From Escherichia phage vB_EcoM-LTH02: DNA of 64,000 nucleotides. The first letter of the stretch is position 1. Every line of letters begins with the position of its first letter. The position numbers and the translations under genes are program-made. The notes beneath the pieces are model-generated. The model was not told the DNA's origin and made no database searches. It saw nothing but the letters and a program-made list of their open reading frames with translations. The stretch lies in the sequence record PP430346. The stretch is one strand, 5' to 3'. Below, piece after piece: positions 286-21,415 of this stretch.

Positions 286-376
286 ATAGATTTCTTTACA
301 CGGGGCTAACAAGCGGATATGATAGCCCCAGATAAAGAGATTTATCAAATTAACCCTTAAACTAGGAGATTCAAAA

Positions 377-673
377 ATGAAATTATCAAATAAAGTTAGG
401 GAAAACCTTAGCAAATTACTCAACAAAATTGATTTTATAGAGACATCAAGGAATAGTCATGATGTTATGGAATGGTTACACGGCAAAATAAAAGGCCGTC
501 GTGTAGTGATTTGCTTATGGAATAGTTGCAGGGAGTATAAAAAGCCTGTATTGCAAATTAATGTTTATGATGATACTTTTAAAAGTCCTGTAAAGTCTAA
601 AAGCGATTTATTAGAATCCTATGAGATAACTGTAAATGGCAAAGTATCACGTAAAGAGGAAACACCATGTTAA
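377..673 (+). CDS. hypothetical early protein (98 aa)
   Basis: ATG at 377 preceded by conserved leader CTTAAACTAGGAGATTCAAAA (SD AGGAG); ORF track. Confidence 0.6.
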   Translation: MKLSNKVRENLSKLLNKIDFIETSRNSHDVMEWLHGKIKGRRVVICLWNSCREYKKPVLQINVYDDTFKSPVKSKSDLLESYEITVNGKVSRKEETPC

Positions 674-999
674 TGACTGGTATCACTGCAATCATTGCCA
701 TTTTCGCGCTATATAAGGCATATAAAGCCTATAATCTAGCAAATAAGGCAATCACACAGCAAGTTAGCAATAACCTTGTAGAGAGCTTTCTAGGGCGTTT
801 AAGTGATGAGCAAATAAAGCGGCTAGAGATGAGCTTCAGATATAAAGCGAAAACCTATCAGATAAGTGACATCTTCAAAGATGATTTCCAGTTAGTTGAT
901 GATTATAATTCTCTGATAAATGCTTTAAACATCAGTGACTTGAAAGACTATCACGCTGTAATTGTTCAAGAATTGAGCAAACGAAAACAAAGTGTTTGA
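667..999 (+). CDS. hypothetical small protein with hydrophobic N-terminus (110 aa)
   Basis: ATG at 667 overlaps the stop of the upstream ORF (translational coupling); N-terminal MLMTGITAIIAIFALY looks like a transmembrane helix. Confidence 0.55.
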   Translation: MLMTGITAIIAIFALYKAYKAYNLANKAITQQVSNNLVESFLGRLSDEQIKRLEMSFRYKAKTYQISDIFKDDFQLVDDYNSLINALNISDLKDYHAVIVQELSKRKQSV

Positions 1000-1024
1000 C
1001 ACTGATTTTTAGATAGGTTAAATT
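996..1024 (+). promoter_or_regulatory. sigma70-like promoter (TTGACA-17-TAAATT), one of a repeated set
   Basis: TTGACA 996-1001, 17-nt spacer, TAAATT 1019-1024; the same architecture recurs at 2045-2073 and as the near-identical block AAAAGATGTTGACA upstream of the gene at 4275. Confidence 0.55.
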
Positions 1025-1034
1025 ACACATCAAC

Positions 1035-1055
1035 GGGGAGGGGATGACCTTCCCC
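1035..1055 (+). promoter_or_regulatory. conserved 5'-leader hairpin (GGGGAGGG-GATGA-CCTTCCCC) upstream of SD
   Basis: 8-bp GC-rich stem between predicted transcription start and SD; variants at 311-336, 1560-1588, 2075-2095, 2358-2390, 2690-2718, 3649-3669, 4210-4230, 4814-4832, 5149-5169. Confidence 0.5.
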
Positions 1056-1090
1056 ACTAAATAAAGTCCTTAAACTAGGAGATTCTAAAA

Positions 1091-1249
1091 ATGTTTTGTG
1101 CAGGTGATAAAGTTGTCTGGAATGATATAGATGACGGTTTATGTACGAAAGTTGTTGTTATCTTAGAAATTGATTATATCACTGGTGTTGCAACTGTAGC
1201 AGATAATGATATAATCTTTGATGTCTTAATTAGTGAACTGTCAAAATAA
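1091..1249 (+). CDS. hypothetical small protein (52 aa)
   Basis: ATG at 1091 directly after the conserved leader/SD module; below ORF-track size cutoff; translated by eye MFCAGDKVVWNDIDDGLCTKVVVILEIDYITGVATVADNDIIFDVLISELSK. Confidence 0.45.
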   Translation: MFCAGDKVVWNDIDDGLCTKVVVILEIDYITGVATVADNDIIFDVLISELSK

Positions 1250-1274
1250 AGTCCTTAAACTAGGAGATTCAAAA

Positions 1275-1547
1275 ATGTACACTACTAACAACGGTCGCAC
1301 CTTAAACGTAACCCTACGCCACTATGTGAACGGTGTAATGCACTTCGAGGATTTACAAGCTGAACAGCACATTTTGGATTGGCAACTTGCAGGATTCCAA
1401 AAAACTGCTACCGGATACGGGAAAAAGATTCCAACTAGCTGGAAAGTATACTACGAAGGCCGTTTGCGTAGAATTTATCAAGATGTATGCGGCAATAGCG
1501 CATCAAGTTACATCATAGTAAAAGGCAAAAAGCTGCATTTAGCATAA
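1275..1547 (+). CDS. hypothetical early protein (90 aa)
   Basis: ORF track 1233..1547; start moved to the ATG at 1275 that follows CTAGGAGATTCAAAA. Confidence 0.6.
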   Translation: MYTTNNGRTLNVTLRHYVNGVMHFEDLQAEQHILDWQLAGFQKTATGYGKKIPTSWKVYYEGRLRRIYQDVCGNSASSYIIVKGKKLHLA

Positions 1548-1632
1548 AGTACTTTACAAGGGGCTTATAAGTCTGTACAGTAAGCCCCAGATAAAGAGCT
1601 TTACCACTAAATCCTAAATTGGAGATTCAAAA

Positions 1633-2037
1633 ATGGCTATTAATAATCGTGAGTTATCTATCTTAAAAGCACGTTTGACCGTCAACCGGATTAATGTTAT
1701 CACATCATCAGCACCAGATGAAACACTGCAAAACATTATTGGGAAGATTCAAAGTATTATCTTAGACGTTGAAAGCGTAAAAAACTCATTGGCTGACGTT
1801 GCAGCCGGTATCACGCTAGACGGTGCACAACATGAGATGGCCGACATGTTAGGCAAATCAAAGGTAATGAATAAAGAGCTTGATTTAAAGATGTTCCGGT
1901 TTGCTGTTAAAGTGTGGCTATCCGTCGAGTATGACGCTAATTTTGCAATCGCTGATTTCTTTGCCACTTGGTTACAACGTAACTTAACAAATCATGATTT
2001 CCGTGATGTCTGTGATGCAATCTACGCAGAACTTTAA
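1633..2037 (+). CDS. hypothetical early protein (134 aa)
   Basis: ATG after hairpin plus TTGGAGATTCAAAA leader; ORF track. Confidence 0.6.
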   Translation: MAINNRELSILKARLTVNRINVITSSAPDETLQNIIGKIQSIILDVESVKNSLADVAAGITLDGAQHEMADMLGKSKVMNKELDLKMFRFAVKVWLSVEYDANFAIADFFATWLQRNLTNHDFRDVCDAIYAEL

Positions 2038-2044
2038 AAAGATG

Positions 2045-2073
2045 TTGACACTGATTTTTAGATAGATTAAATT
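2045..2073 (+). promoter_or_regulatory. sigma70-like promoter (TTGACA-17-TAAATT)
   Basis: TTGACA 2045-2050, 17-nt spacer, TAAATT 2068-2073. Confidence 0.55.
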
Positions 2074-2137
2074 ACTCATCAACGGGGAGGCAATAACCTC
2101 CCTGCTAAATAAAGTCCTTAAACTAGGAGATTCTAAA

Positions 2138-2335
2138 ATGGCTATTATTAACGGCTTAACCATTGAAACAACACACATCAAAGATATCAAAGTTGGTGAT
2201 GTAGTCCTTTCCCACGGCGTAGAAAAAACTGTCACTGCAAAGGATATCAAAGAGGATTCTTTCATGGGTAGAACTCTCTTCGGTGATTCTTATTGCTTAG
2301 GTTATCTTGCAGTTTTAAAAGTTGTCAAAAATTAA
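2138..2335 (+). CDS. hypothetical early protein (65 aa)
   Basis: Promoter-hairpin-SD module upstream (TTGACA 2045-2050); ORF track. Confidence 0.55.
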   Translation: MAIINGLTIETTHIKDIKVGDVVLSHGVEKTVTAKDIKEDSFMGRTLFGDSYCLGYLAVLKVVKN

Positions 2336-2425
2336 GTAATAAAGTACTTTACAAGGGGCTTAAAAGTTGGTATCTTAAGCCCCAGATAAAGAGCTTTACA
2401 CAGTCCTTAAACTAGGAGATTAAAA

Positions 2426-2674
2426 ATGATGAACTATTTCAATGTCCCTGATACCTGCCGACTATTGACACAAGAAGAAAACTTGGGTAAACCTTTTCTT
2501 TACCACATGCCAGACAACACACCAAAAACTTATAGTTACAATGTCAACCGTTTTACCGCATACGCTGCAAAGAACGGTTATAAGTTGGTCACTCAAAAAG
2601 TAATGCTGGTTACAACCGCTGACGAGATTCCTACAGTTGCAGTTAAACTAATTTTCTCAAAAAAAGTTAAATAA
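2426..2674 (+). CDS. hypothetical early protein (82 aa)
   Basis: Conserved leader CTAGGAGATTAAAA then ATG; ORF track. Confidence 0.55.
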   Translation: MMNYFNVPDTCRLLTQEENLGKPFLYHMPDNTPKTYSYNVNRFTAYAAKNGYKLVTQKVMLVTTADEIPTVAVKLIFSKKVK

Positions 2675-2759
2675 AGTACTTTACAAGGGGCTTATAGTTC
2701 GATAAAGTAAGCCCCAGATAAAGAGCTTTACCACTAAATCCTAAACTGGAGATTCAAAA

Positions 2760-3323
2760 ATGAAATGCTATCACGGAACTACCCTCAAAAACTTTGTAAA
2801 CCTGCTGAATGGTGGCGACAAGCCGGAAGGAATCTGGAACTGCTCATACATGGATGATTGTTTCTACGTTTACCCAATGAACAAGATTATCAAAACGGAA
2901 TGTCTGGAAGATGAGGAAGATTCTTACATTCGTGAACGCTGCATTCAAAACGCTTTAGAATCTGGGCTTATTACGGCAGCTTTCCAAATGGAAACGCAGG
3001 ACGTAATTGTCATTGAGATGGATATCCCAGAGGAAGAGCTAGAGGATGATTATTCTTGTGACAACATGAGCGATATCGCCAGCTTTACCGGACACTTTGA
3101 TAAAGGTTGGATTATTGGCCTTCACTCGACGAAATTTAGTGCGATGTATGCACCTTTCTTTGTACCAGATGCAACTAACCGCAATTTAGGCTATGTTGAC
3201 GATGATTTGTTAAGTATGGCGAAAATTGTACAGAATAGCGGTGATAGTTCCGTGTTTTGTGACTTGCTGGATAAAATCACGGCAAACATCACAGAGCGCA
3301 ATTTAAAAGACTTTTTAGGTTAA
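2760..3323 (+). CDS. hypothetical acidic early protein (187 aa)
   Basis: Conserved leader; product rich in D/E (EEELEDDYSCDNMSD, YVDDDLL). Confidence 0.6.
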   Translation: MKCYHGTTLKNFVNLLNGGDKPEGIWNCSYMDDCFYVYPMNKIIKTECLEDEEDSYIRERCIQNALESGLITAAFQMETQDVIVIEMDIPEEELEDDYSCDNMSDIASFTGHFDKGWIIGLHSTKFSAMYAPFFVPDATNRNLGYVDDDLLSMAKIVQNSGDSSVFCDLLDKITANITERNLKDFLG

Positions 3324-3386
3324 TCAGAACAAAGACACCAACTTCCAACTTAAGGCCCATACAGGGCCATTTAAAGGGCTTAAATC

Positions 3387-3620
3387 ATGCTTACAACCGT
3401 TTATCTTATCCTTTCTATTTGTAATGGTCATTCATGTGATTTTAAAGGGCTTGAGGAGTTTACAGGGAGTAAAGAAAATGCTATTCAAGTTTGCCAGATA
3501 GCAAGACAAGACTATCCCGCCAGTGATGATATTCAATGCTACTTTAAGACAGAAGATGAAGACGGCGTCTATTTTGACAGTGTTGATGGTCAATATGAAA
3601 TTATCATTGAAAAAGACTAG
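3387..3620 (+). CDS. hypothetical protein (77 aa)
   Basis: ORF track; preceded by hairpin GGCCCATACAGGGCC; weak SD. Confidence 0.45.
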   Translation: MLTTVYLILSICNGHSCDFKGLEEFTGSKENAIQVCQIARQDYPASDDIQCYFKTEDEDGVYFDSVDGQYEIIIEKD

Positions 3621-3711
3621 ACAAGCCTGATAAAAGTCTGTAAATTGTCAATCAACGGGGAGGGAATGACCTTCCCCACTAAGTAAAGTCCTTAAACTAG
3701 GAGATTCTAAA

Positions 3712-4053
3712 ATGGCTTATGTAACTGTAATTACCGATAAAGAAGATTCATCTTGGTCAACTCAAGTAAGTGATAAGATGTCACCTATGCAGTGCCTAAA
3801 ATACTTTGAGCAGTGGAACAAAGGCGAGGATGTCAGCCCCTTTCAAGTGATGCAAATCATCCATACAGATAACGAAGGGAACAAAACGACACTTAATAGC
3901 GAGTATTACGCAAATCGTTTTGAGAGTCGAGTTGAAACGATGAAGGGGCTGCGTGAGGCCGGATATGGGCACATTGCCGCCTTGTTATGGGATAGCCTAC
4001 TAAAAAATCAGCGTATCAGCTATGTAAAACCTGAAAAAATATTCATCAGTTAA
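3712..4053 (+). CDS. hypothetical early protein (113 aa)
   Basis: Promoter-hairpin-SD module (hairpin GGGGAGGGAATGACCTTCCCC), ATG at 3712. Confidence 0.6.
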   Translation: MAYVTVITDKEDSSWSTQVSDKMSPMQCLKYFEQWNKGEDVSPFQVMQIIHTDNEGNKTTLNSEYYANRFESRVETMKGLREAGYGHIAALLWDSLLKNQRISYVKPEKIFIS

Positions 4054-4274
4054 TCAATAACTTACAAAAAACTTTTAAAAAGATGTTGACAATCCCTCTT
4101 GACATTGGTAACTTTGTTCGAGGGGGTTATCTAAAAGGGATTAACTTAAAAGATTCTTTATAGATAGACTTAAAAAATTGCTTGCAATCAGATATCAAAA
4201 CAAGTAAATTACTCATCAACGGGGAGGCAATAACCTCCCTACTAAGTAAAGTCCTTAAACTAGGAGATTCTAAA

Positions 4275-4805
4275 ATGAACAAGTTCAAAGCTATCAACTA
4301 TATTCGTTCAAATAATGTAATGTCTAAGCCTGTTAAAGATACCTATGAATTTCGTTGTAATGGGGTACACTTTGCAACCATTACCAAATCAGAAAACGGG
4401 GCTTATTACGTTCATCGTCGTAATGTTGCAACCGTTGTAGTCTCTCATTTTATGCAAGCTGTCGCGGAACTTCTCCCGATGTTTTTAGGTCTTTATTTAG
4501 ATGAGTGTAAAAACGTTCACAGCCACGTTAAAAACCTTTTAAACGGTTATAAAATGGCTTATGAACGTTCTATCAAGTCACTAAACAAGTTTTACAATGC
4601 ACCTGCAAATACTGTTTCAATAGCCTATGCTGCAAATGGTGAGATGGTAAACTTATCCAATGTGGAAGAAATCAAGCTGCATGATTTACGCCCTAGCGGT
4701 TACTCTAAGACTCTCGGTGAAGGTTTAACGTTCAATATCAAGAACTTAGAGAAAACTTTAAAAGATATTGAAAAAGATATTGACGAGACAATCAAAAATC
4801 TGTAA
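4275..4805 (+). CDS. hypothetical early protein (176 aa)
   Basis: ORF track 4182..4805; start moved to ATG at 4275 after conserved CTAGGAGATTCTAAA leader. Confidence 0.6.
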   Translation: MNKFKAINYIRSNNVMSKPVKDTYEFRCNGVHFATITKSENGAYYVHRRNVATVVVSHFMQAVAELLPMFLGLYLDECKNVHSHVKNLLNGYKMAYERSIKSLNKFYNAPANTVSIAYAANGEMVNLSNVEEIKLHDLRPSGYSKTLGEGLTFNIKNLEKTLKDIEKDIDETIKNL

Positions 4806-4867
4806 ATTACTAATCAACGGGGGATGACCTCCCCCCACTAAATAAAAACCTAAACTGGAGATTCAAA

Positions 4868-5131
4868 ATGGAACACGTCGAACTGACCACACTTTTACAA
4901 ATTGCAACCGACAAAGAGGATGTAGCATTATTCCACCGCATCGAAAGTGATTTGTTCAATGGTGAAATCATTAAAGAATCTTATGAAGTTGTCGGATTCA
5001 AAGATGGTAAATCATTTGGATTCTTTGACCTCGACAAAGGCAAAGCGGTTACAAAATATGATGTTTTATCTTGTGAGATTCTGACAAAATACAACGAAAA
5101 AAGACTTGCAACATACGCCAACATGCAGTAA
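4868..5131 (+). CDS. hypothetical early protein (87 aa)
   Basis: Hairpin plus AAACTGGAGATTCAAA leader; ORF track. Confidence 0.55.
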   Translation: MEHVELTTLLQIATDKEDVALFHRIESDLFNGEIIKESYEVVGFKDGKSFGFFDLDKGKAVTKYDVLSCEILTKYNEKRLATYANMQ

Positions 5132-5199
5132 ATTACTAATCAACGGGGAGGGAATGACCTTCCCCACTAAGTAAAATCCTTAAACTAGGAGATTCTAAA

Positions 5200-5448
5200 A
5201 TGGCAACTATCCGCGCAACTGTCAATGCTTATGGCTGTTATACTCTGGACGTGAAATTTGATATTGGTGGGACTGATGAGTGTTTTTCATTAGTGAAGAC
5301 AGTTATCAAGCAAGTTATCCCAGATTATAACCCTACTGATGACTTCTGGAAAGATGCAGTAAAAGAGGCGTTGAACGATGAACATCATTACCATTATTGG
5401 GGTGACTTGATTGTCTCCCTGTACTACAATAAACAAGGTTACAACTAA
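5200..5448 (+). CDS. hypothetical early protein (82 aa)
   Basis: Conserved hairpin/SD module; last gene of the plus cassette, followed by an intrinsic terminator. Confidence 0.55.
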   Translation: MATIRATVNAYGCYTLDVKFDIGGTDECFSLVKTVIKQVIPDYNPTDDFWKDAVKEALNDEHHYHYWGDLIVSLYYNKQGYN

Positions 5449-5486
5449 TCGACGCAGCGGGGCTAAATAGCCCCAGATACCTTCAA

Positions 5487-5511
5487 AGCTCCTTTTCATA
5501 GGGGCTTTTTT
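5487..5511 (+). terminator. intrinsic terminator closing the early cassette
   Basis: Stem AGCTCC/GGGGCT with loop TTTTCATA followed by TTTTT; a second hairpin GGGGCTAAATAGCCCC sits at 5459-5474. Confidence 0.55.
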
Positions 5512-5977
5512 ACGTCTTATCGAATCTCTATACAATCCTTTCCCTTTCCTTCCCAGAATCTTACTAGACCTTAAAAGCAATAACTCTATAGCTTACTCTA
5601 TAACCTTTTATCAAATCAACTTAAATATAAGCCCATAACCCGAAAGGGAAGGGCAACCGTTTAAACGCTCTATAAAGCTCTATAACAGCCTTATCAACCT
5701 AACTTAAGGGATTGCATTAACTCACCCTTAAAAGCCCTTTATAAAGCTTCCTAGAGCCTTAAAAGAATCTTATAAGGGTGTAAGCTTTATCATCTCGTTA
5801 GCTATCTTGTGAACTACTAAAAATGGCTTGTTAGTGTCTTAAAAGTATGCTATAGGGGCTATAAAGTTACTCCAAAGTTACGTGAAAGGGGCTATAAAGT
5901 TACGTAAATGCTAGCCCCCTTAACATTTCTTTAACAATTTCTTAACAATCCCTACATAGTTATGCTTTTAAGGAACT

Positions 5978-7050
5978 TGTTAGCAACTTGTTAGCCCCTT
6001 GTTAAATCTTTGTTAAGACCACGTAAAAGCCTTGTAAGAGTCTTTGACATAGCCTTAAAAGCCCCTGTAAAGCCCTATAAATAGGTATCTGTACAGTTGG
6101 GGTGTAATTACTAGGAAGAGGCTTAAAAGAGCTTACAAAGAGCTATAGAGAGCTTTTAAGAGGGCTATTTAGAGAATCACTAAGAGGGAAAGGGAACGAT
6201 AAGAAAGAGATAGTGACCATGTTAATAGCTTGTTAAAAAGATTAAACACTTGTTAGAAACTTGTTAATTATCTTAACAAAATAACTCATAAAAATTAACT
6301 TGTTAGCTCTTGTTAGTCATCTGTTAAGAGACTATAAAGACCATGTAGCAACTGTTAAGAACTTGTTACAGCCTTGTTAGTTCTGTTAAGAGTCTGTTAA
6401 GACCTCTGAAGAGATGTTAAGAGGTTGAGAGAGTTGTTAAGAGATTGTTAATGATATTTTAAAATTCTGCAAAGGGGATGTTACAGGGATGTTAAGGGCT
6501 ACCAAGCAGATATACACCTTCTACAGATATTTTTGAGTTCCTTCAAAGACCCTAAAAAATGACTTGATAGTCCTATTTTATAAAAATTTTAAAATTCTGA
6601 ATAATTACCTAAACAGTCTTTTAAAAATACAGGCATAAACAGGCTTATAAGATACCTTGTTAATACCGTGTTAGACCTTGTGAGATAAGGTCTGTAAAGA
6701 TATTCCTGTTAAGTTTGTTAAAACAGTCTATATAGAGGCTTAGTAATACCTAGTGAACACCTATAGAGGGTAACATAGCTAACATAATGGGTTACTGTTA
6801 AGTAACACAGGTAACCTAGAGATTAAGAGGTGTATAGGGGCTTCTAAGAGGCTATAGAGAGATGGTTAAGGTGATTGTATAGGTTGTTAAGAAGGCTTGT
6901 TAGAAGGCTTGTTAGAGGGCTATTTAGAAGGTTTATACAGAAGGCTATTAAGACCACTAGATAGATACTAAGATACTATATAGTACTATATAACTATATA
7001 TAGAGAGTAAGCTTAAGAAGGTTGTTAAGAAGGATAGATATTTTATTCAC
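5978..7050. repeat. iteron-like array of TGTTA(A/G) repeats (more than 30 copies, one orientation, about 10-11 bp phasing)
   Basis: Copies at 6251, 6262, 6301, 6311, 6322, 6353, 6364, 6375, 6384, 6395, 6415, 6435, 6446, 6490 and further copies 5978-6030 and 6650-7050; spacings are 9-11 bp or multiples; no ORF above the track cutoff in 5581-7161. Confidence 0.7.
6968..7006. repeat. AT-rich block with three tandem ACTATATA units
   Basis: ATACTATATAGTACTATATAACTATATATAGAG; possible DNA-unwinding element next to the iteron array. Confidence 0.45.
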
Positions 7051-7161
7051 ATATGATGGTGACCCAGAGGTTGGGACAACCGATAAAATTTTATAAAAAT
7101 TATAAATTTCGTAAAATTTACTCAATAAAAAGCCCCCAATTAAGGAGGCTCTTAAGATATT

Positions 7162-14224: not shown

Positions 14225-14466
14225 AGATAATCCTCTTGTCTTCTGTAATTTTGAAAGAACAGGTACAGACCAATTTCAGAGGATGAATAGTAGAGTAACT
14301 CTACCCTTTTTGATTCCTTACAGTGATTGGTATTTTTACCTTTCTTCGGGTTGTTTGATTTTCTCATTAAGTCTCCTTTGTAGAACAAGGCAGACCTACA
14401 GCTTTAAGTAAGATGGTACAGTAATCCATACAACAAGTCAAGAACTATTGCAAGTTAAAAAAGTTG

Positions 14467-14490
14467 TTGACAAAGTACTTGACAAGGTGT
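14467..14490 (+). promoter_or_regulatory. conserved tandem-TTGACA motif TTGACAAAGTACTTGACAAGGTGT (copy 1)
   Basis: 23 of 24 identical to 56431-56454; both copies sit at minus-to-plus strand-switch regions 120-170 nt upstream of the first plus gene; TATAAATA at 14496-14503. Confidence 0.5.
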
Positions 14491-16650: not shown

Positions 16651-16727
16651 CTCTGTTTAGCTCAGCTTGGTAGAGCGTTCCGTTTGGGGCGGTAAGGCCG
16701 GAGGTTCAAGTCCTCCAACAGAGACCA
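16651..16727 (+). tRNA. tRNA-Pro (anticodon TGG)
   Basis: Cloverleaf by eye: acceptor CTCTGTT/AACAGAG, D GCTC..GAGC, anticodon loop TTTGGGG, T-arm GGAGG-TTCAAGT-CCTCC, CCA encoded. Confidence 0.75.
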
Positions 16728-16734
16728 AATTAAT

Positions 16735-16812
16735 GTTCCAGTAGACAAAATGGTAAAGTCACCACTCTTTCAAAGTGGATATTTGAGGGTTCAAATCCCT
16801 TCTGGAACGCCA
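16735..16812 (+). tRNA. tRNA-Glu (anticodon TTC)
   Basis: Acceptor GTTCCAG/CTGGAAC, anticodon stem CCACT/AGTGG with loop CTTTCAA, T-loop TTCAAAT, CCA encoded. Confidence 0.75.
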
Positions 16813-16819
16813 GTTTTGA

Positions 16820-16892
16820 CAGAAGACCAATTGCAGCAAACTTAATCTTATTCATCTGACACGAAATCGGACAAAGAAGAGATTTGGTCTGG
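16820..16892 (+). ncRNA. structured element of the AGACC/GGTCT stem family (a)
   Basis: 5' CAGAAGACCAA-TTGCAGCAA ... TTGGTCTGG 3'; terminal 7-bp stem AGACCAA/TTGGTCT; lies between tRNA-Glu and tRNA-Met. Confidence 0.45.
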
Positions 16893-16903
16893 TCATTAAG
16901 AAT

Positions 16904-16980
16904 TGCGGGTATAGAGAAAGGGCGTCTCACATGTCTCATTAGCATGGTATCGGCAGGTTCGACTCCTGCACCCGCCTCCA
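16904..16980 (+). tRNA. tRNA-Met-like (anticodon CAT), irregular
   Basis: Anticodon stem CATGT/GCATG with loop CTCATTA, D-stem GAGA/TCTC, T-arm GCAGG-TTCGACT-CCTGC, 3' ACCCGCC-T-CCA; the acceptor pairs only with a T1/C72 mismatch or an extra nucleotide before the D-stem. Confidence 0.5.
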
Positions 16981-16986
16981 ATTTTG

Positions 16987-17046
16987 CAGAAGACCGTATT
17001 CAGCAACAAACTACTTTTTGCGGATAAAAGAAAAAACACGGTCTGG
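16987..17046 (+). ncRNA. structured element of the AGACC/GGTCT stem family (b)
   Basis: CAGAAGACCG-TATTCAGCAA ... CGGTCTGG; stem uses CG where elements a and c use CAA/TTG (compensatory change). Confidence 0.45.
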
Positions 17047-17057
17047 CAATGTATTAA

Positions 17058-17134
17058 GGTTAGGAAGCACATAAGGTATGTGCGGTCGCCTGTTAAGCGA
17101 ATGGCACAGGGTTCGAATCCCTGACTAACCGCCA
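17058..17134 (+). tRNA. tRNA-Asn (anticodon GTT)
   Basis: Acceptor GGTTAGG/ACTAACC, D GCAC..GTGC, loop CTGTTAA, T-arm CAGGG-TTCGAAT-CCCTG, G-CCA. Confidence 0.75.
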
Positions 17135-17143
17135 AATTTAAAT

Positions 17144-17231
17144 GTGTCGTTATCCCGTAGATGGTAGCGGTGGGGACTGTAAATCCCTTGTCATTGAGAC
17201 TCGGTAGGTTCGACTCCTACACGGCACACCA
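17144..17231 (+). tRNA. tRNA-Tyr (anticodon GTA), class II
   Basis: Acceptor GTGTCGT/ACGGCAC, loop CTGTAAA, long variable arm, T-arm GTAGG-TTCGACT-CCTAC, A-CCA. Confidence 0.7.
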
Positions 17232-17237
17232 AATAAA

Positions 17238-17315
17238 GGTTATGTAGTTTAATCTGGTTAAAATACTCCCCTGTCACGGGAGATGATGAGGGTTCAAATC
17301 CCTTCGTAACCGCCA
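17238..17315 (+). tRNA. tRNA-Asp (anticodon GTC)
   Basis: Acceptor GGTTATG/CGTAACC, anticodon stem CTCCC/GGGAG with loop CTGTCAC, T-loop TTCAAAT, G-CCA. Confidence 0.75.
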
Positions 17316-17402
17316 AATTATAATAAGTATTTCAAGATGATGTTTTGAGAGGGCTATTTAGCCCCTCCCTTAAAGAGTTCTTACGAGTATTCTTTAAAGG
17401 AG

Positions 17403-17479
17403 CAGAAGACCAAATTCAGCAAGTACGTATGATATTTTCAAGCCAATTTAATTTTGAAAAAATTTAAAACTTGGTCTGG
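17403..17479 (+). ncRNA. structured element of the AGACC/GGTCT stem family (c)
   Basis: CAGAAGACCAA-ATTCAGCAAG ... TTGGTCTGG; internal hairpin TTTTCAA...TTGAAAA. Confidence 0.45.
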
Positions 17480-17492
17480 CTCAACAAATTTA

Positions 17493-17624
17493 CAGAAGAC
17501 CGTTTACAGCAAAACTTAAACAATCTATTTCTCCGGTAAAGAAAAGGCGAAGGTTCGATTCCTTCACTCGGCAGATGTCGAGTTGGTGTAATGGTAGCAC
17601 TTAAGATGATAAACAACGGTCTGG
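17493..17624 (+). ncRNA. YrlA-like (Y-RNA-like) candidate: terminal stem plus circularly permuted tRNA-like module
   Basis: Terminal stem AGAAGACCGTT (17495-17504) / AACGGTCT (17615-17622); inside, in this order: hairpin TTTCT-CCGGTAA-AGAAA (17528-17544), canonical T-arm GAAGG-TTCGATT-CCTTC (17549-17565), closed acceptor-like stem ACTCGGC-AGAT-GTCGAGT (17566-17583), D-arm GTGT-AATGGTA-GCAC (17586-17600). Confidence 0.55.
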
Positions 17625-17631
17625 TAATTAT

Positions 17632-17763
17632 CTTTGTAGATAAGTTATTAAGCTTACCTGTGAGTATGCGACCACAAAGGGTGAAAGGGTAAATTCTAGA
17701 TTTAAACCCAACAAGGCACATCGCTACAGACCTTAAGCAAGTCTGGGTAGCTTATCTACAAAG
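17632..17763 (+). ncRNA. structured region closed by a 13-bp long-range inverted repeat
   Basis: CTTTGTAGATAAG (17632-17644) pairs with CTTATCTACAAAG (17751-17763); encloses hairpin CAGACC-TTAAGCAA-GTCTGG (17726-17745). Confidence 0.4.
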
Positions 17764-17773
17764 ATAATTTAAT

Positions 17774-17849
17774 GGAAGTGTAGCAGAATGGTGATGCGGC
17801 AGACTTTTAATCTGACAGGCGATGGGTTCGAATCCCTCCACTTCTACCA
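17774..17849 (+). tRNA. tRNA-Lys (anticodon TTT)
   Basis: Acceptor GGAAGTG/CACTTCT, loop CTTTTAA, T-loop TTCGAAT, A-CCA; T-stem weak (3 bp). Confidence 0.65.
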
Positions 17850-17853
17850 ATAT

Positions 17854-17930
17854 GGTTCAGTCGCAGATAAGGTAATGCAAGGGTCTCATAAACCCTATGA
17901 ATGTGGGTTCGATTCCCATCTGAACCTCCA
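17854..17930 (+). tRNA. tRNA-Met or Ile2 (anticodon CAT)
   Basis: Acceptor GGTTCAG/CTGAACC, anticodon stem AGGGT/ACCCT with loop CTCATAA, T-arm GTGGG-TTCGATT-CCCAT, T-CCA. Confidence 0.75.
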
Positions 17931-17931
17931 A

Positions 17932-18007
17932 GCTGGTATAGTTAAGAAGGTTATAACACTCCCCTGATAAGGGAACATCGGTGGTTCGATTCCACCTACC
18001 AGTACCA
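17932..18007 (+). tRNA. tRNA-Ile (anticodon GAT)
   Basis: Acceptor GCTGGTA/TACCAGT, D GTTA..TAAC, loop CTGATAA, T-arm GGTGG-TTCGATT-CCACC, A-CCA. Confidence 0.75.
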
Positions 18008-18022
18008 ATTTCAATAAAGTTG

Positions 18023-18051
18023 TTGACATTGAGATGTGACCACTTTATAGT
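18023..18051 (+). promoter_or_regulatory. internal promoter in the tRNA region (TTGACA-17-TATAGT)
   Basis: TTGACA 18023-18028, 17-nt spacer, TATAGT 18046-18051; about 200 nt non-tRNA leader follows before tRNA-Arg. Confidence 0.6.
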
Positions 18052-18254
18052 AACCTTAGTTTTCGTTGCGTAGCGTCTATTTTGCAAATTTAAAATAAAT
18101 GCAAACGACAATGTTTTTCTGGCAGTAGCTTGATAGGCTAAACACCAGTGAGGTCTTCCAATCCCTCATCAAAGAATTTGGCGTACTCGCCCACGGTATG
18201 ATTAATAAGGTGGGCATCTTTAAGGGCTTTCTAAGAGAGTCTTTAAAGATTAAT

Positions 18255-18331
18255 GCACCCTTAGTTCAATTGGATAGAGCAACGGTCTTCTAAATCGTTA
18301 GTTACAGGTTCGAATCCTGTAGGGTGTGCCA
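18255..18331 (+). tRNA. tRNA-Arg (anticodon TCT)
   Basis: Acceptor GCACCCT/AGGGTGT, D GTTC..GAGC, loop CTTCTAA, T-arm ACAGG-TTCGAAT-CCTGT, G-CCA. Confidence 0.75.
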
Positions 18332-18473
18332 AATAGTTAGCAGATTGCTTAGACGACCTTATCGGGTCTCCGTGTAAGGAGGTGGTCTGTATCTCATGTT
18401 TTCCAGAACATGTAAATAATCTGAGAAGGGGCTTTACAGTGTTGCGAAAATACGGTAAGCTTCGAATTATAGT

Positions 18474-18556
18474 GTGGGACGATGTTAAGACTCTAAGGCA
18501 TGAGCAACGGCCTCCAAAACCGTTTCAAAGGGGTTCAACTCCTCCGTCCCATGCCA
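18474..18556 (+). tRNA. tRNA-like, possibly Trp (anticodon CCA), irregular
   Basis: Acceptor GTGGGAC/GTCCCAT, T-arm AGGGG-TTCAACT-CCTCC, G-CCA; anticodon arm ACGGC-CTCCAAA-ACCGT; 9 nt instead of 2 between acceptor and D-stem, total 83 nt. Confidence 0.4.
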
Positions 18557-18569
18557 AAGTCTTATTAGG

Positions 18570-18659
18570 GGTAGGTAGCGGCTAATGGTAGCCAAACTGT
18601 CTTGAAAACAGTTGCCACTGTAGAGATACGGTGAGGGTTCGACTCCTTTACTTACCGCC
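18570..18659 (+). tRNA. tRNA-Ser (anticodon TGA), class II
   Basis: Acceptor GGTAGGT/ACTTACC, anticodon stem ACTGT/ACAGT with loop CTTGAAA, long variable arm, T-arm GAGGG-TTCGACT-CCTTT; 3' end reads G-CC-T, so CCA is not fully encoded. Confidence 0.7.
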
Positions 18660-18814
18660 TAATAAGATTTAAAGCCAAGCTTCATTCGGATGTTGCTTTG
18701 GTATCCCTCGTGTATTGTCGTACACGCACAGTAAAGCACCTAGTAGGTGTCACGGAGAAGAGATAATATCAAGCTCTCCAAAGGTTCTAGTCACCGGATT
18801 AAACAAGACTATGC

Positions 18815-18836
18815 AAAGACCAAATTAGGTCTTTTT
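18815..18836 (+). terminator. terminator-like hairpin using the AGACC/GGTCT stem
   Basis: AAAGACC-AAATTA-GGTCTTT followed by TT. Confidence 0.4.
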
Positions 18837-18915
18837 AGAGGGCTTCTAAGGTTATTACAGCTTGTTGTGGAACCTTGTTGCTTAGGTTCTTAGAAGTTCT
18901 CTAAAAAGATTTAAT

Positions 18916-18992
18916 GCACCTATAGCCCAATTGGTAGAGGCAGCAGACTTAGAATCTGCTCAGTGTGAGTTCGAATCTCTCTAGGTGTACCA
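18916..18992 (+). tRNA. tRNA with anticodon TAG (Leu by anticodon; short variable arm)
   Basis: Acceptor GCACCTA/TAGGTGT, anticodon stem GCAGA/TCTGC with loop CTTAGAA, T-loop TTCGAAT, A-CCA; 77 nt. Confidence 0.65.
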
Positions 18993-18999
18993 AATTAAT

Positions 19000-19075
19000 G
19001 CAGGTGTAGCAAAATGGTTATGCGGCTGACTCTTAATCAGTAAGACGATGGGTTCAATTCCCTCCACCTGTACCA
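19000..19075 (+). tRNA. tRNA-Lys (anticodon CTT)
   Basis: Acceptor GCAGGTG/CACCTGT, loop CTCTTAA, T-loop TTCAATT, A-CCA; paralog of tRNA-Lys(TTT). Confidence 0.65.
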
Positions 19076-19081
19076 AACATT

Positions 19082-19157
19082 GGGGATGTAGTTTACATGG
19101 TTAAAACATAAGTTTTGCAAACTTAAGTACAGGGTTCAATTCCCTGCTTCTCCACCA
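19082..19157 (+). tRNA. tRNA-Ala (anticodon TGC)
   Basis: D GTTT..AAAC, anticodon stem TAAGT/ACTTA with loop TTTGCAA, T-arm CAGGG-TTCAATT-CCCTG, 3' CTTCTCC-A-CCA. Confidence 0.7.
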
Positions 19158-19163
19158 ATTAGT

Positions 19164-19238
19164 GCATCCATAGTTTAAACGGGAAAATTACAGTCTTCCA
19201 AACTGAGGTTGAGGGTTCGATTCCCTCTGGATGCTCCA
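19164..19238 (+). tRNA. tRNA-Gly (anticodon TCC)
   Basis: Acceptor GCATCCA/TGGATGC, loop CTTCCAA, T-arm GAGGG-TTCGATT-CCCTC, T-CCA. Confidence 0.75.
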
Positions 19239-19244
19239 AACAAT

Positions 19245-19321
19245 GCTGCTTTCGTATAATTGGCTATTACACATCCCTTGTAAGGATGGAAATGCAGGTT
19301 CGAGTCCTGTGAGCAGCACCA
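19245..19321 (+). tRNA. tRNA-Thr (anticodon TGT)
   Basis: Acceptor GCTGCTT/GAGCAGC, anticodon stem CATCC/GGATG with loop CTTGTAA, T-loop TTCGAGT, A-CCA. Confidence 0.75.
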
Positions 19322-19325
19322 ATTC

Positions 19326-19411
19326 AGAGGTCAAGTGAAAGACCGCTGGTGTCAACTGAAGACCGTAACAAATTCCACGGAGTTGAGTTAGCGGCACAAC
19401 TTCAGACCTCT
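19326..19411 (+). ncRNA. multi-stem structured element between tRNA-Thr and the next tRNA
   Basis: Nested stems AGAGGTC (19326-19332) / GACCTCT (19405-19411); CCGCT (19343-19347) / AGCGG (19390-19394); TCAACT (19352-19357) / AGTTGA (19381-19386); apical loop carries GAAGACCGTAACAAATTCC, related to the 5' arms of elements a-d. Confidence 0.45.
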
Positions 19412-19416
19412 TCCAT

Positions 19417-19491
19417 ACTCGCTTAGTTTATATGGTAAAACACCACCCTTACAAGATGAAGAAAAAGGTTCAAGTCCTTTAGTGAGTACCA
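19417..19491 (+). tRNA. tRNA-like, anticodon probably TAC (Val); weak anticodon stem
   Basis: Acceptor ACTCGCT/AGTGAGT, D GTTT..AAAC, T-arm AAAGG-TTCAAGT-CCTTT, A-CCA; anticodon region CCACC-CTTACAA-GATGA forms only 3 of 5 pairs. Confidence 0.45.
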
Positions 19492-19492
19492 T

Positions 19493-19570
19493 GTTCCAGT
19501 ATCCCAATTGGCAGAGGATGCAAGCTCAAACCTTGTACTAGTGACGGTTCGAATCCGTCTTGGAACACCA
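19493..19570 (+). tRNA. tRNA with anticodon CAA (Leu by anticodon; short variable arm)
   Basis: Acceptor GTTCCAG/TTGGAAC, anticodon stem GCAAG/CTTGT with loop CTCAAAC, T-arm GACGG-TTCGAAT-CCGTC, A-CCA. Confidence 0.65.
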
Positions 19571-19575
19571 ATTTT

Positions 19576-19651
19576 GCAGGATTAGTTCAAATGGATAGAG
19601 CAACAGTCTACGAAGCTGTTAATAGGGGTTCGAATCCCTTATCCTGCGCCA
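19576..19651 (+). tRNA. tRNA-Arg (anticodon ACG)
   Basis: Acceptor GCAGGAT/ATCCTGC, D GTTC..GAGC, loop CTACGAA, T-loop TTCGAAT, G-CCA. Confidence 0.75.
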
Positions 19652-19670
19652 ATTTAAAGAGGCTATTTAG

Positions 19671-20228
19671 ATGAGATATTTGAAGTATGCTTCATGGATT
19701 TTCTTAGCTTTGTTAGAGCCATTTGCAGCAATCTTAGCAGTTATCTTAGCACCTTTCGTAGTTCCATTTTACAGTGAGAAGAAAGGACACTTACCTTTCG
19801 GATTTAGATGGATGGAAACTTACGACAACCCGATTGATGGTGATGAAGGTCACGTCAAACGATGGGCTAAGATTAGAAAGATTGGTAAGCTTGGTATCTA
19901 TATGCAGAGAGTCGGTTGGCTCTGGAGAAACAAAGCTTATAACTTCTCTTATCATGTGTTAGGAAGAGATGTGAAAGATGTTACTAAGTGGAAAGGTAAT
20001 ATTAATGTAAGTTCTAACCCTGAAGATAATCAGACAGGTTATCTCCTAATGTGGAACAGTAATGCTTGGGGATTATTCGCTTTTATCCCATCAATTAAAG
20101 TCTTTGGTAAACAATTCTACTGGAGAATTTATGTTGGATGGAAACTTAAAAGTGTTGTCCCAAAAGAAAGAGCATTCTCAAGGGAAAGAGTTATGTTGGC
20201 ATTCTTTATTCATCCACTAAGAAAGTAA
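19671..20228 (+). CDS. hypothetical Trp-rich membrane-anchored protein embedded in the tRNA array (185 aa)
   Basis: ATG at 19671 with SD in AAGAGGCTATTTAG; N-terminal hydrophobic helix WIFLALLEPFAAILAVILAPFVV. Confidence 0.55.
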   Translation: MRYLKYASWIFLALLEPFAAILAVILAPFVVPFYSEKKGHLPFGFRWMETYDNPIDGDEGHVKRWAKIRKIGKLGIYMQRVGWLWRNKAYNFSYHVLGRDVKDVTKWKGNINVSSNPEDNQTGYLLMWNSNAWGLFAFIPSIKVFGKQFYWRIYVGWKLKSVVPKERAFSRERVMLAFFIHPLRK

Positions 20229-20236
20229 AGATTTAA

Positions 20237-20312
20237 AGGGGATTAGTTTACAAGGTTAAAACCTCGGTCTTTGAAATCGAAGAAGTTGGTTCAATTCCAA
20301 CATCCCCCGCCA
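20237..20312 (+). tRNA. tRNA-Gln (anticodon TTG)
   Basis: Acceptor AGGGGAT/ATCCCCC (A1/C72 mismatch), D GTTT..AAAC, anticodon stem TCGGT/ATCGA with loop CTTTGAA, T-arm GTTGG-TTCAATT-CCAAC, G-CCA. Confidence 0.7.
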
Positions 20313-20314
20313 AT

Positions 20315-20393
20315 GCTCCATTACTCCAATTGGCAGAGAGGCCAGACTTAAAATCTGTGTTATGTATCGGTTCGAATCCGATATGGAGTACCA
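20315..20393 (+). tRNA. tRNA with anticodon TAA (Leu by anticodon; short variable arm)
   Basis: Acceptor GCTCCAT/ATGGAGT, loop CTTAAAA, T-arm ATCGG-TTCGAAT-CCGAT, A-CCA. Confidence 0.6.
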
Positions 20394-20398
20394 AATTT

Positions 20399-20474
20399 AG
20401 CGGTATAGCATAACTGGCAATGCAGCAGTCTCTGAAGCTGTCTTATTAAGGTTCAAATCCTTATGCCGCTGCCA
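20399..20474 (+). tRNA. tRNA-Gln (anticodon CTG)
   Basis: Acceptor AGCGGTA/TGCCGCT, D GCAT..ATGC, loop CTCTGAA, T-arm TAAGG-TTCAAAT-CCTTA, G-CCA. Confidence 0.7.
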
Positions 20475-20505
20475 CTTCTAAGGGTTCTTACGAGAGTCCT
20501 TAAAT

Positions 20506-20581
20506 GTGGCCTTATCATAAAAGGTAATGACCCATGCTGTGAACATGGTCTATACGGGTTCAAATCCCGTAGGTCACCCCA
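20506..20581 (+). tRNA. tRNA-His (anticodon GTG)
   Basis: Acceptor GTGGCCT/AGGTCAC, D TCAT..ATGA, anticodon stem CCATG/CATGG with loop CTGTGAA, T-arm ACGGG-TTCAAAT-CCCGT, discriminator C then CCA. Confidence 0.75.
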
Positions 20582-20586
20582 ATTTA

Positions 20587-20663
20587 TAGTCCAAGTAGCT
20601 TATATGGTTAAAGCGCGTGTCTGAAAAACATGAGAAGAGGGTTCAAATCCCACTGGACTACCA
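20587..20663 (+). tRNA. tRNA-Phe-like (anticodon GAA), irregular acceptor/D junction
   Basis: D GCTT..AAGC, anticodon stem CGTGT/ACATG with loop CTGAAAA, T-loop TTCAAAT; acceptor TAGTCCA/TGGACTA pairs perfectly but leaves a nonstandard junction and 3' end. Confidence 0.55.
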
Positions 20664-20679
20664 ATTTCAAAGGTGCTTA

Positions 20680-21414: not shown

Positions 21415-21415
21415 T

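Follow-up and report, generated by a model that had tools for sequence, protein, structure and literature searches.

Predicted promoter, hairpin and leader modules in the early gene array of Escherichia phage vB_EcoM-LTH02 closely match the PeSL cassettes of T4-type phages

Within a 64,000-nt stretch of Escherichia phage vB_EcoM-LTH02 (PP430346; the whole stretch is referred to as the window), small + strand genes form an array in which repeated intergenic modules combine a predicted promoter, a hairpin and a near-invariant leader. This early array probably carries small ORFans as self-contained cassettes behind two repeated modules (classes A and B), by the mechanism of the promoter-early stem-loops (PeSLs), which are mobile regulatory cassettes of the T4-type phages RB49/phi1, T4/PST and KVP40/nt-1 (PMC2839356, PMC4122927). 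As judged from sequence, the modules are real PeSL-type cassettes in Ounavirinae that closely match the known ones and do not represent a new principle. Comparison of the sequences reveals two fixed architectures, a 17-nt promoter spacing and predicted hairpins that are kept by pair-preserving or compensatory changes. Cargo genes were acquired or lost as complete units and, in comparisons between genera, have also changed place; the junctions lie in the modules.

The leader was located by a Hamming distance scan of the 64-kb window. TAAACTAGGAGATTC occurs in seven exact copies and in one copy with a single mismatch, only on the + strand and all within 358-5195. Nine matches in total were obtained with up to three mismatches, a number reached in none of 100 shuffles. 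Adding the second allele (CCTAAACTGGAGATTC / CCTAAATTGGAGATTC) leads to 11 leaders, all on the + strand, that span 355-5199 and are positioned at 359, 1072, 1257, 1615, 2120, 2409, 2742, 3694, 4257, 4851 and 5182. Every one of them ends at the ATG of one of 13 + strand genes, and the same scan detected no comparable copy in the other 58 kb of the window. The near-identical initiation region on at least 11 genes, from which the original prediction had started, was thus confirmed. Chance or low complexity as a source of the leaders was ruled out by the shuffles and by the folding z-scores given below. The genes, as taken from the list of open reading frames (ORFs), are the following:

377-673, 667-999, 1091-1249, 1275-1547, 1633-2037, 2138-2335 and 2426-2674, + strand: the first seven of 13 cargo genes
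2760-3323, 3387-3620, 3712-4053, 4275-4805, 4868-5131 and 5200-5448, + strand: the remaining cargo genes

A census of 239 leaders from 20 loci yielded three leader alleles, namely CCT-AAACT-GGAG (112 copies), CCTT-AAACT-A-GGAG (94) and CCT-AAATT-GGAG (33), which alternate before orthologous genes. The spacer between GGAG and ATG has 8 nt in 167 of the 239 leaders. Across genera, the leader is conserved beyond the Shine-Dalgarno (SD) sequence as CC(T)TAAAC..GGAG/AGGA..ATC..AAAA-ATG. It is best explained as a strong, optimally spaced ribosome-binding site (RBS; GGAG, 8 nt, ATG) within an exchanged repeat; its identity beyond the SD would follow from repeated copies that keep recombining, in addition to the optimally spaced SD. 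Since the leader is the sole stretch common to both module classes, class A and class B cassettes can recombine with each other. A mini-hairpin in which UCC(U) pairs with (A)GGA of the SD is predicted in the leader, but it is weak (-1.9 to -3.6 kcal/mol). In the long allele, the additional T and the additional A are only found together (0 intermediates in 239 copies) and contribute exactly one U-A pair; this 'covariation' is a single linked event. The mini-hairpin could tune translation or could reflect mere linkage.

A hairpin had been proposed before each gene. Ten of the 11 leaders do follow one, while the leader at 1253-1274 has none. The hairpins are of two types, each with its own module architecture: one type follows the -10, the other encloses it. 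Beyond what had been noticed, the class B hairpins appear to enclose their own promoter, the class A hairpins are expected at the very 5' end of the transcript, and the arrangement corresponds to that of the PeSLs from T4-type phages.

Class A modules (six copies in the window) consist of an A-rich stretch, a -35 hexamer (TTGACA, TTGCAA, TAGACA or TTGACG), exactly 17 nt, TAAATT, a 10-nt spacer ending in CATCAAC and a G/C hairpin of 6-8 bp, whose G-rich/C-rich stem contains a G.U pair, followed by ACTAARTAAAG and the leader CCTTAAACTAGGAGATTCTAAA-ATG. The upstream gene often has its stop codon within one of the two hexamers, and two copies have the -35 in coding sequence. Several identical TTGACA-17-TAAATT promoters had been claimed; the exact sequence was found at two promoters only (996, 2045), while four others have TAAATT with TAGACA, TTGCAA (twice) or TTGACG at 17 nt. 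The copies are listed with folding energy (dG, in kcal/mol) and folding z-score (z):

996-1090, + strand: class A module 1, before gene 1091-1249; -35 TTGACA 996-1001 (holds the TGA stop of the preceding gene), -10 TAAATT 1019-1024, hairpin 1035-1055, leader 1068-1090; dG -20.2, z -2.8
2045-2137, + strand: class A module 2, before gene 2138-2335; -35 TTGACA 2045-2050, -10 TAAATT 2068-2073, hairpin 2083-2104, leader 2116-2137; dG -18.3, z -3.7, reached in 0 of 200 shuffles
3618-3711, + strand: class A module 3, before gene 3712-4053; -35 TAGACA 3618-3623 (holds a TAG stop), -10 3641-3646, hairpin 3657-3677, leader 3690-3711; dG -19.6, z -2.9
Within 4054-4274, + strand: class A module 4, before gene 4275-4805; -35 TTGCAA 4182-4187, -10 4205-4210, hairpin 4221-4240, leader 4253-4274; dG -16.9, z -2.7
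4780-4867, + strand: class A module 5, before gene 4868-5131; -35 TTGACG 4780-4785 inside the preceding gene, -10 TAAATT 4803-4808 (TAA is the stop), hairpin 4819-4835, leader 4849-4867; dG -12.4, z -1.45, the weakest copy
5106-5199, + strand: class A module 6, before gene 5200-5448; -35 TTGCAA 5106-5111 in coding sequence, -10 5129-5134 (TAA is the stop), hairpin 5145-5165, leader 5178-5199; dG -19.1, z -2.6
1250-1274, + strand: leader-only module, before gene 1275-1547; leader 1253-1274, no hairpin

All class A 5' regions fold into a hairpin with -12 to -20 kcal/mol and z-scores of -2.6 to -3.7, apart from one weak copy (-1.45). The stems were judged by per-sequence folding because their length varies, which puts the alignment out of register for column-wise covariation. 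Considering both classes, nine of ten module hairpins have z-scores of -2.6 to -5.1. For comparison, 17 Felixounavirus loci were used (the window, P54, AYO145A, ten IMG/VR contigs, VpaE1_ev108, ESCO49, DaR-2019b and Felix O1). Among their 86 distinct class A modules, 85 have a -35-type hexamer with at least 4/6 matches to TTGACA exactly 17 nt before the -10; TTGACA is perfect in 23, TAAATT is present in 72 and AAAA occurs in the 14 nt upstream in 58. The hairpin begins at a fixed distance of 10 nt past the -10. Transcription usually starts about 7-9 nt past the -10, so that the class A stem is expected 2-4 nt from the predicted 5' end.

Class B modules (four copies in the window) contain TTTACA, 17 nt and TAnnnT enclosed in a three-tier RNA helix, followed by the leader. 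A stop codon lies within (A)TAAAGTACTTTACA; then follow GGGGCTTA, a loop of 10-13 nt, TAAGCCCC, AGATAAAGAGCTTTAC and the leader. The loop holds TAnnnT exactly 17 nt past TTTACA (TATGAT, TACAGT, TATCTT and TAAAGT). The tiers UAAAGU/GCUUUA, CUUUA/UAAAG and GGGGCUUA/UAAGCCCC comprise about 19 pairs, with a 3x3 internal loop and a 1x1 mismatch between them, and are longer than the hairpin of 8-9 bp alone.

286-376, + strand: class B module 1 (divergent copy), before gene 377-673; -35 TTTACA 295-300, -10 TATGAT 318-323 in the loop, helix about 286-345, leader 355-376; dG -26.6, z -5.1, reached in 0 of 200 shuffles; covariance model 73.8 bits
1548-1632, + strand: class B module 2, before gene 1633-2037; -35 1553-1558, -10 TACAGT 1576-1581, helix 1545-1603, leader 1611-1632; dG -24.2, z -3.9; covariance model 85.1 bits
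2336-2425, + strand: class B module 3, before gene 2426-2674; -35 2348-2353, -10 TATCTT 2371-2376, helix 2340-2398, leader 2405-2425; dG -24.6, z -3.3; covariance model 85.0 bits
2675-2759, + strand: class B module 4, before gene 2760-3323; -35 2680-2685, -10 TAAAGT 2703-2708, helix 2672-2730, leader 2738-2759; dG -24.2, z -4.3, reached in 0 of 200 shuffles; covariance model 88.8 bits

The class B intergenic RNAs fold with -24 to -27 kcal/mol (z -3.3 to -5.1). In 52 distinct sequences from four genera, 97.4% of the pair cells are standard pairs compared to 31-57% when the partners were slid. Double compensatory changes were found at three pairs (GC to UA eight times, GC to UA four times and UA to AU twice), together with wobble-type changes (CG to UG 18 times, AU to GU seven times). 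The observed covariation score was reached in none of 500 shuffles. G.U wobbles pair in the sense-strand RNA only. A covariance model made from the alignment of these sequences recovered four copies in the window and seven in the 88 kb genome of P54, all within the array, with 74-89 bits in sense and 28-38 bits in antisense orientation. An arrangement of two palindromic operator boxes (AAAG-NN-CTTT) that flank the promoter is disfavoured: the two boxes can base-pair, and in the divergent copy at 286-345 both sides carry changes that compensate each other (GC to UA in the outer helix), which favours a helix over two protein sites. Rfam gave no match to any module and only two sub-threshold chance matches, both outside the modules. 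A weak covariance-model match (about 21 bits) with GTGTTTGACAAGGGGCT was seen in the rIIA-rIIB spacer of P54 (15251-15299) and Felix O1 (2289-2349; locus coordinates) and may be a solitary promoter and hairpin element outside the array.

The spacing of the hexamers argues strongly for promoter function of the modules. TTTACA stands 17 nt from TAnnnT in 63 of the 65 Felixounavirus class B copies. All loops of the 52 sequences have TA at the start of the -10 and at least 90% have T at its end, whereas the positions around these vary; thus, the loop keeps only TA...T, which a promoter needs and a helix would not. A promoter consensus scan lists eight of the modules in the window, among them the divergent class B copy with 10/12 for TTTACA-17-TATGAT. 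A sequence similar to the class B -35 context AAAGTACTTTACAAGG, namely AAAGTACTTGACAAGG, is found at position 14473 in a divergent intergenic region, which corresponds, by position only and unaligned, to the place of the predicted Felix O1 promoter P41. Twin-box promoter-like sites TTGACAA(A/T)GTACTTGACAAGGTGT were observed at 14456-14490 and 56420-56454, the first of which includes the AAAGTACTTGACAAGG core. The class B helix would lie upstream of its own predicted start and would be present only in read-through RNA from the preceding cassette.

No U-tract follows the module hairpins, which continue into ACTAAATAAAG or AGATAAAG, and a terminator scan of the window called no module (three matches elsewhere compared to 4.4 expected). 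An intrinsic terminator is recognised solely past the last gene, at 5485-5512. The modules were therefore rejected as intrinsic terminators.

Exchange of the cassettes is well supported by comparison with relatives. The window is from a Felixounavirus, a Felix O1-like myovirus; its first 6 kb resemble such phages, with Escherichia phage vB_EcoM_P54 as top match (96% identity). The region matches 256 phage records in many separate pieces and with very uneven coverage, which indicates a mosaic. The 17 loci share one common gene order, and 15 of 20 cargo families are variably present, with nine cargo genes in Felix O1 and 16 in VpaE1_ev108. Genes 667-999, 1275-1547, 1633-2037, 3712-4053 and 5200-5448 are always present and the other cargo of the window is variable. 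In the phage collection, a core cargo gene was found in 233 records, the 87-amino-acid (aa) gene in 122 and the 52-aa gene in 25, 22 of which are at least 99% identical.

Where a gene is absent, one complete and often chimeric module is left. In P54, the module between the 176-aa and 82-aa genes has its 5' part from one flanking module and its 3' part from the other; the crossover in Felix O1 lies at a different point, and VpaE1_ev108 retains a partial leader duplication as a scar. The single junction module of a relative aligns to both flanking modules of the window over 31-109 nt, which is the signature of recombination between direct repeats. Sequence 1250-1274 forms a 27-nt direct repeat with 1062-1085 that brackets the accessory 52-aa gene (1091-1249), and relatives without this gene are joined exactly at 1094/1244-1248. 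Similarly, class A modules 5 and 6 bracket the accessory 87-aa gene (4868-5131), which is absent from P54, Felix O1 and others. According to blastn blocks, 18 of 24 distinct breakpoint clusters are located in intergenic DNA (±5 nt), which makes up 22.8% of the region (binomial 8.7e-8), and two additional clusters lie on the -35 edge of a module. Every combination of spacer allele and leader allele occurs, indicating exchange inside the modules too. Paralogous modules are 84-88% and orthologous ones 85-92% similar, and the nearest relative is a paralogue from the same genome for 13-20% of the modules. Strong intragenomic concerted evolution was thus borne out in part only. In the 187-aa gene (2760-3323), the first approx. 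45 nt are kept in several relatives (L004, L009, L016) and the remainder is a divergent allele (stretch 2804-3363); this is an allelic replacement with breakpoints inside the gene and in the next intergenic region.

Modules are present in 247-288 phage records (about 250-290 Ounavirinae genomes) at about five places per genome, and gave no match in 5,426 complete E. coli genomes. Suspvirus, Mooglevirus and Kolesnikvirus have the same architecture with diverged sequence, and in Suspvirus, Mooglevirus and Erwinia phage phiEa21-4 it follows the same phosphatase gene. Diverged examples have GGTGTTTATA/TATAAGCACC as stems, TAGTAT and TAATCT as loop -10s at 17 nt and AACAACCCTTATAAAGGAATCAAAACATG as leader. 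Conserved modules have a genus-specific sequence with compensatory changes in the stem. In phiEa21-4, shared cargo families are arranged in a different order and ten of 17 cargo genes lack a homologue in the Felixounavirus families defined here; in Maleficent, one cargo family occupies a different slot. Leader and hairpin are conserved across relatives while the cargo varies. The suggestion that small genes are swapped behind a constant leader is well supported by the presence or absence of whole units, the breakpoints in modules, the chimeric junctions and the rearranged order in other genera.

All defining features of PeSLs that can be tested on sequence (Arbiol et al. 2010, PMC2839356; Comeau et al. 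2014, PMC4122927) are present in this array. In both systems, a composite motif recurs between genes and is clustered in a hyperplastic region (here 11 modules in 286-5199; in P54, one array of approx. 6.5 kb). The order is the same, namely upstream stop, A/T-rich stretch, sigma-70-like -35/N17/-10, stem-loop, SD and ATG, with the stop at the 5' end, which here lies inside TTGACA, TAGACA, TAAATT or TAAAGTAC. The stem-loop of PeSLs is GGGG...CCCC with G.T pairs; here, G.U pairs are common and the stem-loops fold with -12 to -27 kcal/mol. In PeSLs, it is located between -35 and -10, over the -10 (class B does both) or downstream of the -10 (as in class A). The T4/PST consensus TTTACW-N17-TAYWAT (PMC2839356, PMC4122927) equals the class B promoter TTTACA-N17-TAnnnT. 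ORFan cargo, indels between close relatives at the motifs and 'half' motifs at the array ends are further common traits. Promoter and attenuator/terminator activity in vivo and mini-circles that arise by recombination of adjacent motifs are also part of the PeSL definition. However, the modules belong to another lineage (Ounavirinae with 88 kb genomes, not Straboviridae) and have no sequence homology to T4-type PeSLs. The module types are rigid and just two in number, and they share a near-invariant leader of 25 nt. The stem-loop of class B belongs to a longer three-tier helix with covariation support, and the class A hairpin lies past the predicted start and is expected in the 5' untranslated region (UTR). 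Two rigid module classes, a covarying three-tier helix around the promoter and the constant leader add some detail to the known picture. A literature search, which most subscription journals were outside the reach of, revealed no paper that links PeSLs to Felix O1-like phages.

The repeats themselves have been recorded before. The Felix O1 genome paper lists direct repeats of 57 bp and 39 bp (Whichard et al. 2010, PMC3185647); the 57-bp repeat (CTTTACATGGGGCTT...AGAGCTTTACCACT) is class B and the 39-bp repeat (TTGACACTGG...TAAATTACACATCAAC) is the class A promoter. The GenBank record of wV8 (NC_012749) annotates DR_1-DR_9 on module sequences without interpretation, and the text of the wV8 paper does not mention these features. 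The sequences are the same but were never read as promoters, RNA structures or recombination sites, and the promoters predicted by the Felix O1 authors do not include the direct repeats.

According to the proposed PeSL-type mechanism, host sigma-70 RNA polymerase would start at each module soon after infection. A class A transcript would begin about 2-4 nt before the G/C hairpin, which as a 5'-terminal stem-loop may guard the mRNA from 5'-end-dependent decay. A hairpin that near the 5' end blocks decay by RppH/RNase E. Stabilisers of the ompA 5' UTR type, reportedly described by Emory, Bouvet and Belasco in 1992, likewise have a stable hairpin near the 5' end, comparable to the class A G/C hairpin about 2-4 nt from the predicted end. 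The class B helix (approx. 19 bp) would form only in read-through RNA and may, through insulation, 3' protection or processing, mark the 3' end of the message from upstream or attenuate it there. From the embedded promoter, transcription would start anew with an unstructured A-rich leader. The repeats of 25-95 nt would provide the crossover points for deletion, insertion and swapping of cassettes by homologous recombination. Promoter activity, hairpin function and the formation of mini-circles in the array are what we infer here.

Expression data from Felix O1 are in partial agreement with the designation of the array as early. By reverse transcription PCR, ORF16, 20, 21 and 22 were maximal at 5 min (PMC3185647); their orthologues are the window genes 1-285 (partial), 1633-2037, 3712-4053 and 4275-4805. 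ORF17, 19 and 23, however, were maximal at 25 min (PMC3185647), and this is one of several points that weigh against the proposed mechanism. The -10 hexamers are imperfect (TAAATT; TAAAGT, TATCTT), and a literature search found neither a Felixounavirus transcriptome or map of transcription start sites nor promoter activity or RNA stability for any Ounavirinae phage. Classic intrinsic termination is not predicted at the modules. In the class B covariation test, the sequences are kin by descent and the structure was taken from the same sequences. The closest copy is an orthologue in another genome for 79 of 95 class A and 58 of 79 class B modules, which indicates that intragenomic conversion is occasional, and purifying selection could be behind part of the module homogeneity. 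Finally, the gene order is strictly collinear within the genus, so that 'shuffling' there means gain and loss at fixed slots.

Processing by RNase III, the second of the three options proposed, is possible though clearly less likely, and would be compatible with the PeSL-type mechanism. Phage T7 has RNase III processing sites between its early genes; sites of this type have about two turns of double-stranded RNA and usually an internal loop. In a similar way, the array would be transcribed mainly as one polycistronic RNA that starts at the strong promoter past the phosphatase gene and is cut at the class B sites, leaving monocistronic mRNAs with stabilising 3' hairpins. The interrupted class B helix of approx. 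19 bp lies, like the T7 helices with their internal loops, exactly between early cistrons, with covariation and sense-strand wobbles, and a protective 3' hairpin is possible in both. A strong promoter before the first cassette is conserved in all relatives and the array contains no U-tract terminators. However, the T7 sites are longer and have no embedded promoter, and 19 bp with two interruptions would be at the low end for a substrate. The invariant TA...T 17 nt from TTTACA in the class B loop serves no role for RNase III. Cleavage may occur in class B but is implausible for the class A hairpins, which with 6-8 bp are far too short, and over half of the junctions would stay unprocessed. The modules might also be RNA stabilisers or insulators and recombination patches without internal promoters, the -35/-10 matches being by-products of AT-rich repeats. 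This would agree with promoter support from consensus matching only, with the imperfect -10s, with the absence of the modules from the neural-network promoter search of the Felix O1 authors and with the late peak of several orthologues. It is nevertheless improbable given the exact 17-nt spacing in 85 of 86 class A and 63 of 65 class B modules, the -35 that is kept inside coding sequence and across stop codons, the class B loop that keeps three key -10 positions only, the resemblance of the class B -35 context to the site at 14473 and the published T4/PST consensus.

About as doubtful is a translational operator, in which the leader would bind a phage repressor (T4 RegA-like) or be the target of an SD-cleaving nuclease (T4 RegB-like) and the whole early array would be shut off together. 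Phages are known to shut off their early genes in a coordinated way, and the conservation of the leader beyond the SD across genera as well as the mini-hairpin over the SD with its always linked U and A would fit. Yet three leader alleles and several spacer variants are interchangeable before orthologous genes, the leaders of the Erwinia phage have no GGAG, and no RegA/RegB-like gene is annotated in P54, Felix O1 and wV8 (annotation only, no profile search was made). The weak mini-hairpin with its one linked event adds little, and homogenisation of the repeats already accounts for the identity. No result supported the repressor site that had been suggested; recombination and a well-spaced SD suffice. 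A selfish or host-derived repeat without a role in expression (similar to repetitive extragenic palindromes (REP), enterobacterial repetitive intergenic consensus (ERIC) sequences or miniature inverted-repeat transposable elements (MITE)) would also be repeated, partly palindromic and intergenic. It was effectively refuted by zero matches in the 5,426 E. coli genomes, the single orientation of all copies, the fixed register with upstream stop and downstream ATG, the confinement to one array per genome and the compensatory changes across four genera.

Integron cassette arrays depend on a tyrosine-recombinase integrase and on attC sites with a fixed crossover point. As in the array described here, small genes in one orientation are each bounded by an imperfect palindromic element and cassettes vary between relatives. 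Here, however, each cassette has its own (predicted) promoter and RBS, no integrase is annotated in the complete genomes of these virulent phages, and crossovers occur at varied positions within the modules, which fits homologous and not site-specific recombination. An integron cassette array was rejected for the lack of an annotated integrase and the variable crossover position. It is rather far-fetched, though conceivable, that the class B helix (perhaps the class A hairpin too) is in addition a recognition structure for dedicated integron-like cassette mobilisation, in which a phage-encoded or hijacked protein would excise and insert the ORFan cassettes. The PeSL authors speculated on a recombination protein that binds GGGG...CCCC (PMC2839356, PMC4122927). 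If such mobilisation were true, the Ounavirinae early array would be an active gene-capture platform for anti-host genes.

The window opens inside a 14th cargo gene (1-285, partial). In the complete genome of P54, the array runs approx. 1.4 kb and four genes further upstream, up to the phosphatase gene, after which the strong promoter mentioned above is AT-rich and located before the first cassette in all relatives compared. None of the 13 cargo proteins had a Pfam match above the cut-off. Twelve of them match PHROGs families of unknown function and the product of the 52-aa gene matches none; all cargo proteins of the window are of unknown function and ORFans. Gene 667-999 has no leader, but overlaps and is coupled to the preceding gene. 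Gene 3387-3620, the only other one that lacks a leader, has an SD of its own behind a terminator-like hairpin. Further special junctions are as follows:

3324-3386, + strand: non-module junction; hairpin GGCCC-AUACA-GGGCC 3354-3368, then AUUU and a different SD for gene 3387-3620
4054-4274, + strand: long intergenic region; additional upstream promoter-like site TTGACAATCCCTCTTGACA at about 4086-4104, then class A module 4
5449-5512, + strand: array end; half class B module GGGGCTAAATAGCCCCAGATACC 5459-5483, then the intrinsic terminator (stem 5485-5508 and T-run)

The junction at 3324-3386 does not fold significantly (dG -11.2, z -1.35); relatives carry the terminator-like GCCCCTTGTAGGGGCTTTT at its site. 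The promoter-like site at about 4086-4104 has two overlapping -35 boxes (TTGACAATCCCTCTTGACA), and the spacer 4054-4180 also holds a CCCTC/GAGGG inverted repeat. Every relative, other genera included, has kept the site in 4054-4180, which carries a promoter annotation in AYO145A. The terminator at the array end folds with -26.7 kcal/mol (z -4.5), is annotated at the same place in AYO145A and corresponds in position to terminator t23 of Felix O1 (PMC3185647). The half class B module at 5459-5483 resembles the 'degraded PeSLs' at the edges of T4-like arrays, and SUSP1 and Maleficent also have one.

Between the array end and convergent - strand genes, approx. 1.7 kb (5450-7160) are non-coding and packed with periodic repeats of 10-12 bp (TTGTTAG, TGTTAAGAG, AAGAGCT and TATAAAG; 17 TRF arrays). 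Felix O1, wV8, VpaE1_ev108, SUSP1 and Maleficent have a gap of about 1.5-1.7 kb at the same position. The region has an iteron-like appearance and could serve as replication origin or in packaging, as a terminal region. A repeat pair was found at 49183-49407 and 50718-50952 (approx. 190-225 nt, 77-83% identical, 1.5 kb apart); the copies at 49183 and 50718 start with the terminator-like TTGGCAGATTTTTTTATAAGGCTACTGCCA, followed by a C/A-rich tract. At 16700-21600 and 41990-44840, a putative tRNA cluster, visible as T-arm/acceptor-like repeat families (GGTTCGAATCC...CCA), and His-rich repeat motifs were observed, the latter in a region where P54 has tail-fibre genes; both match known features of Felix O1. 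The taxonomy line of the P54 GenBank record (PV390658.1) reads Straboviridae; Tevenvirinae; Tequatrovirus for an 88 kb Felix O1-like genome and is probably mis-assigned.

With this array, PeSL-type cassettes, so far those of T4-like phages, are extended to a group that is not related to these and is in wide use: Felix O1-like phages serve in typing, biocontrol and therapy of Salmonella and E. coli. In class B, one stretch of 60 nt appears to be under dual coding, carrying a DNA promoter and a selected RNA helix. The modules flag accessory early genes, likely candidates for host takeover and anti-defence, that differ between otherwise near-identical therapeutic phages. They also predict sites of spontaneous deletions and offer compact natural expression cassettes for phage engineering. 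Repeats with promoter, hairpin and RBS that flank ORFans suggest a convergent, general plug-and-play early region of large virulent phages.

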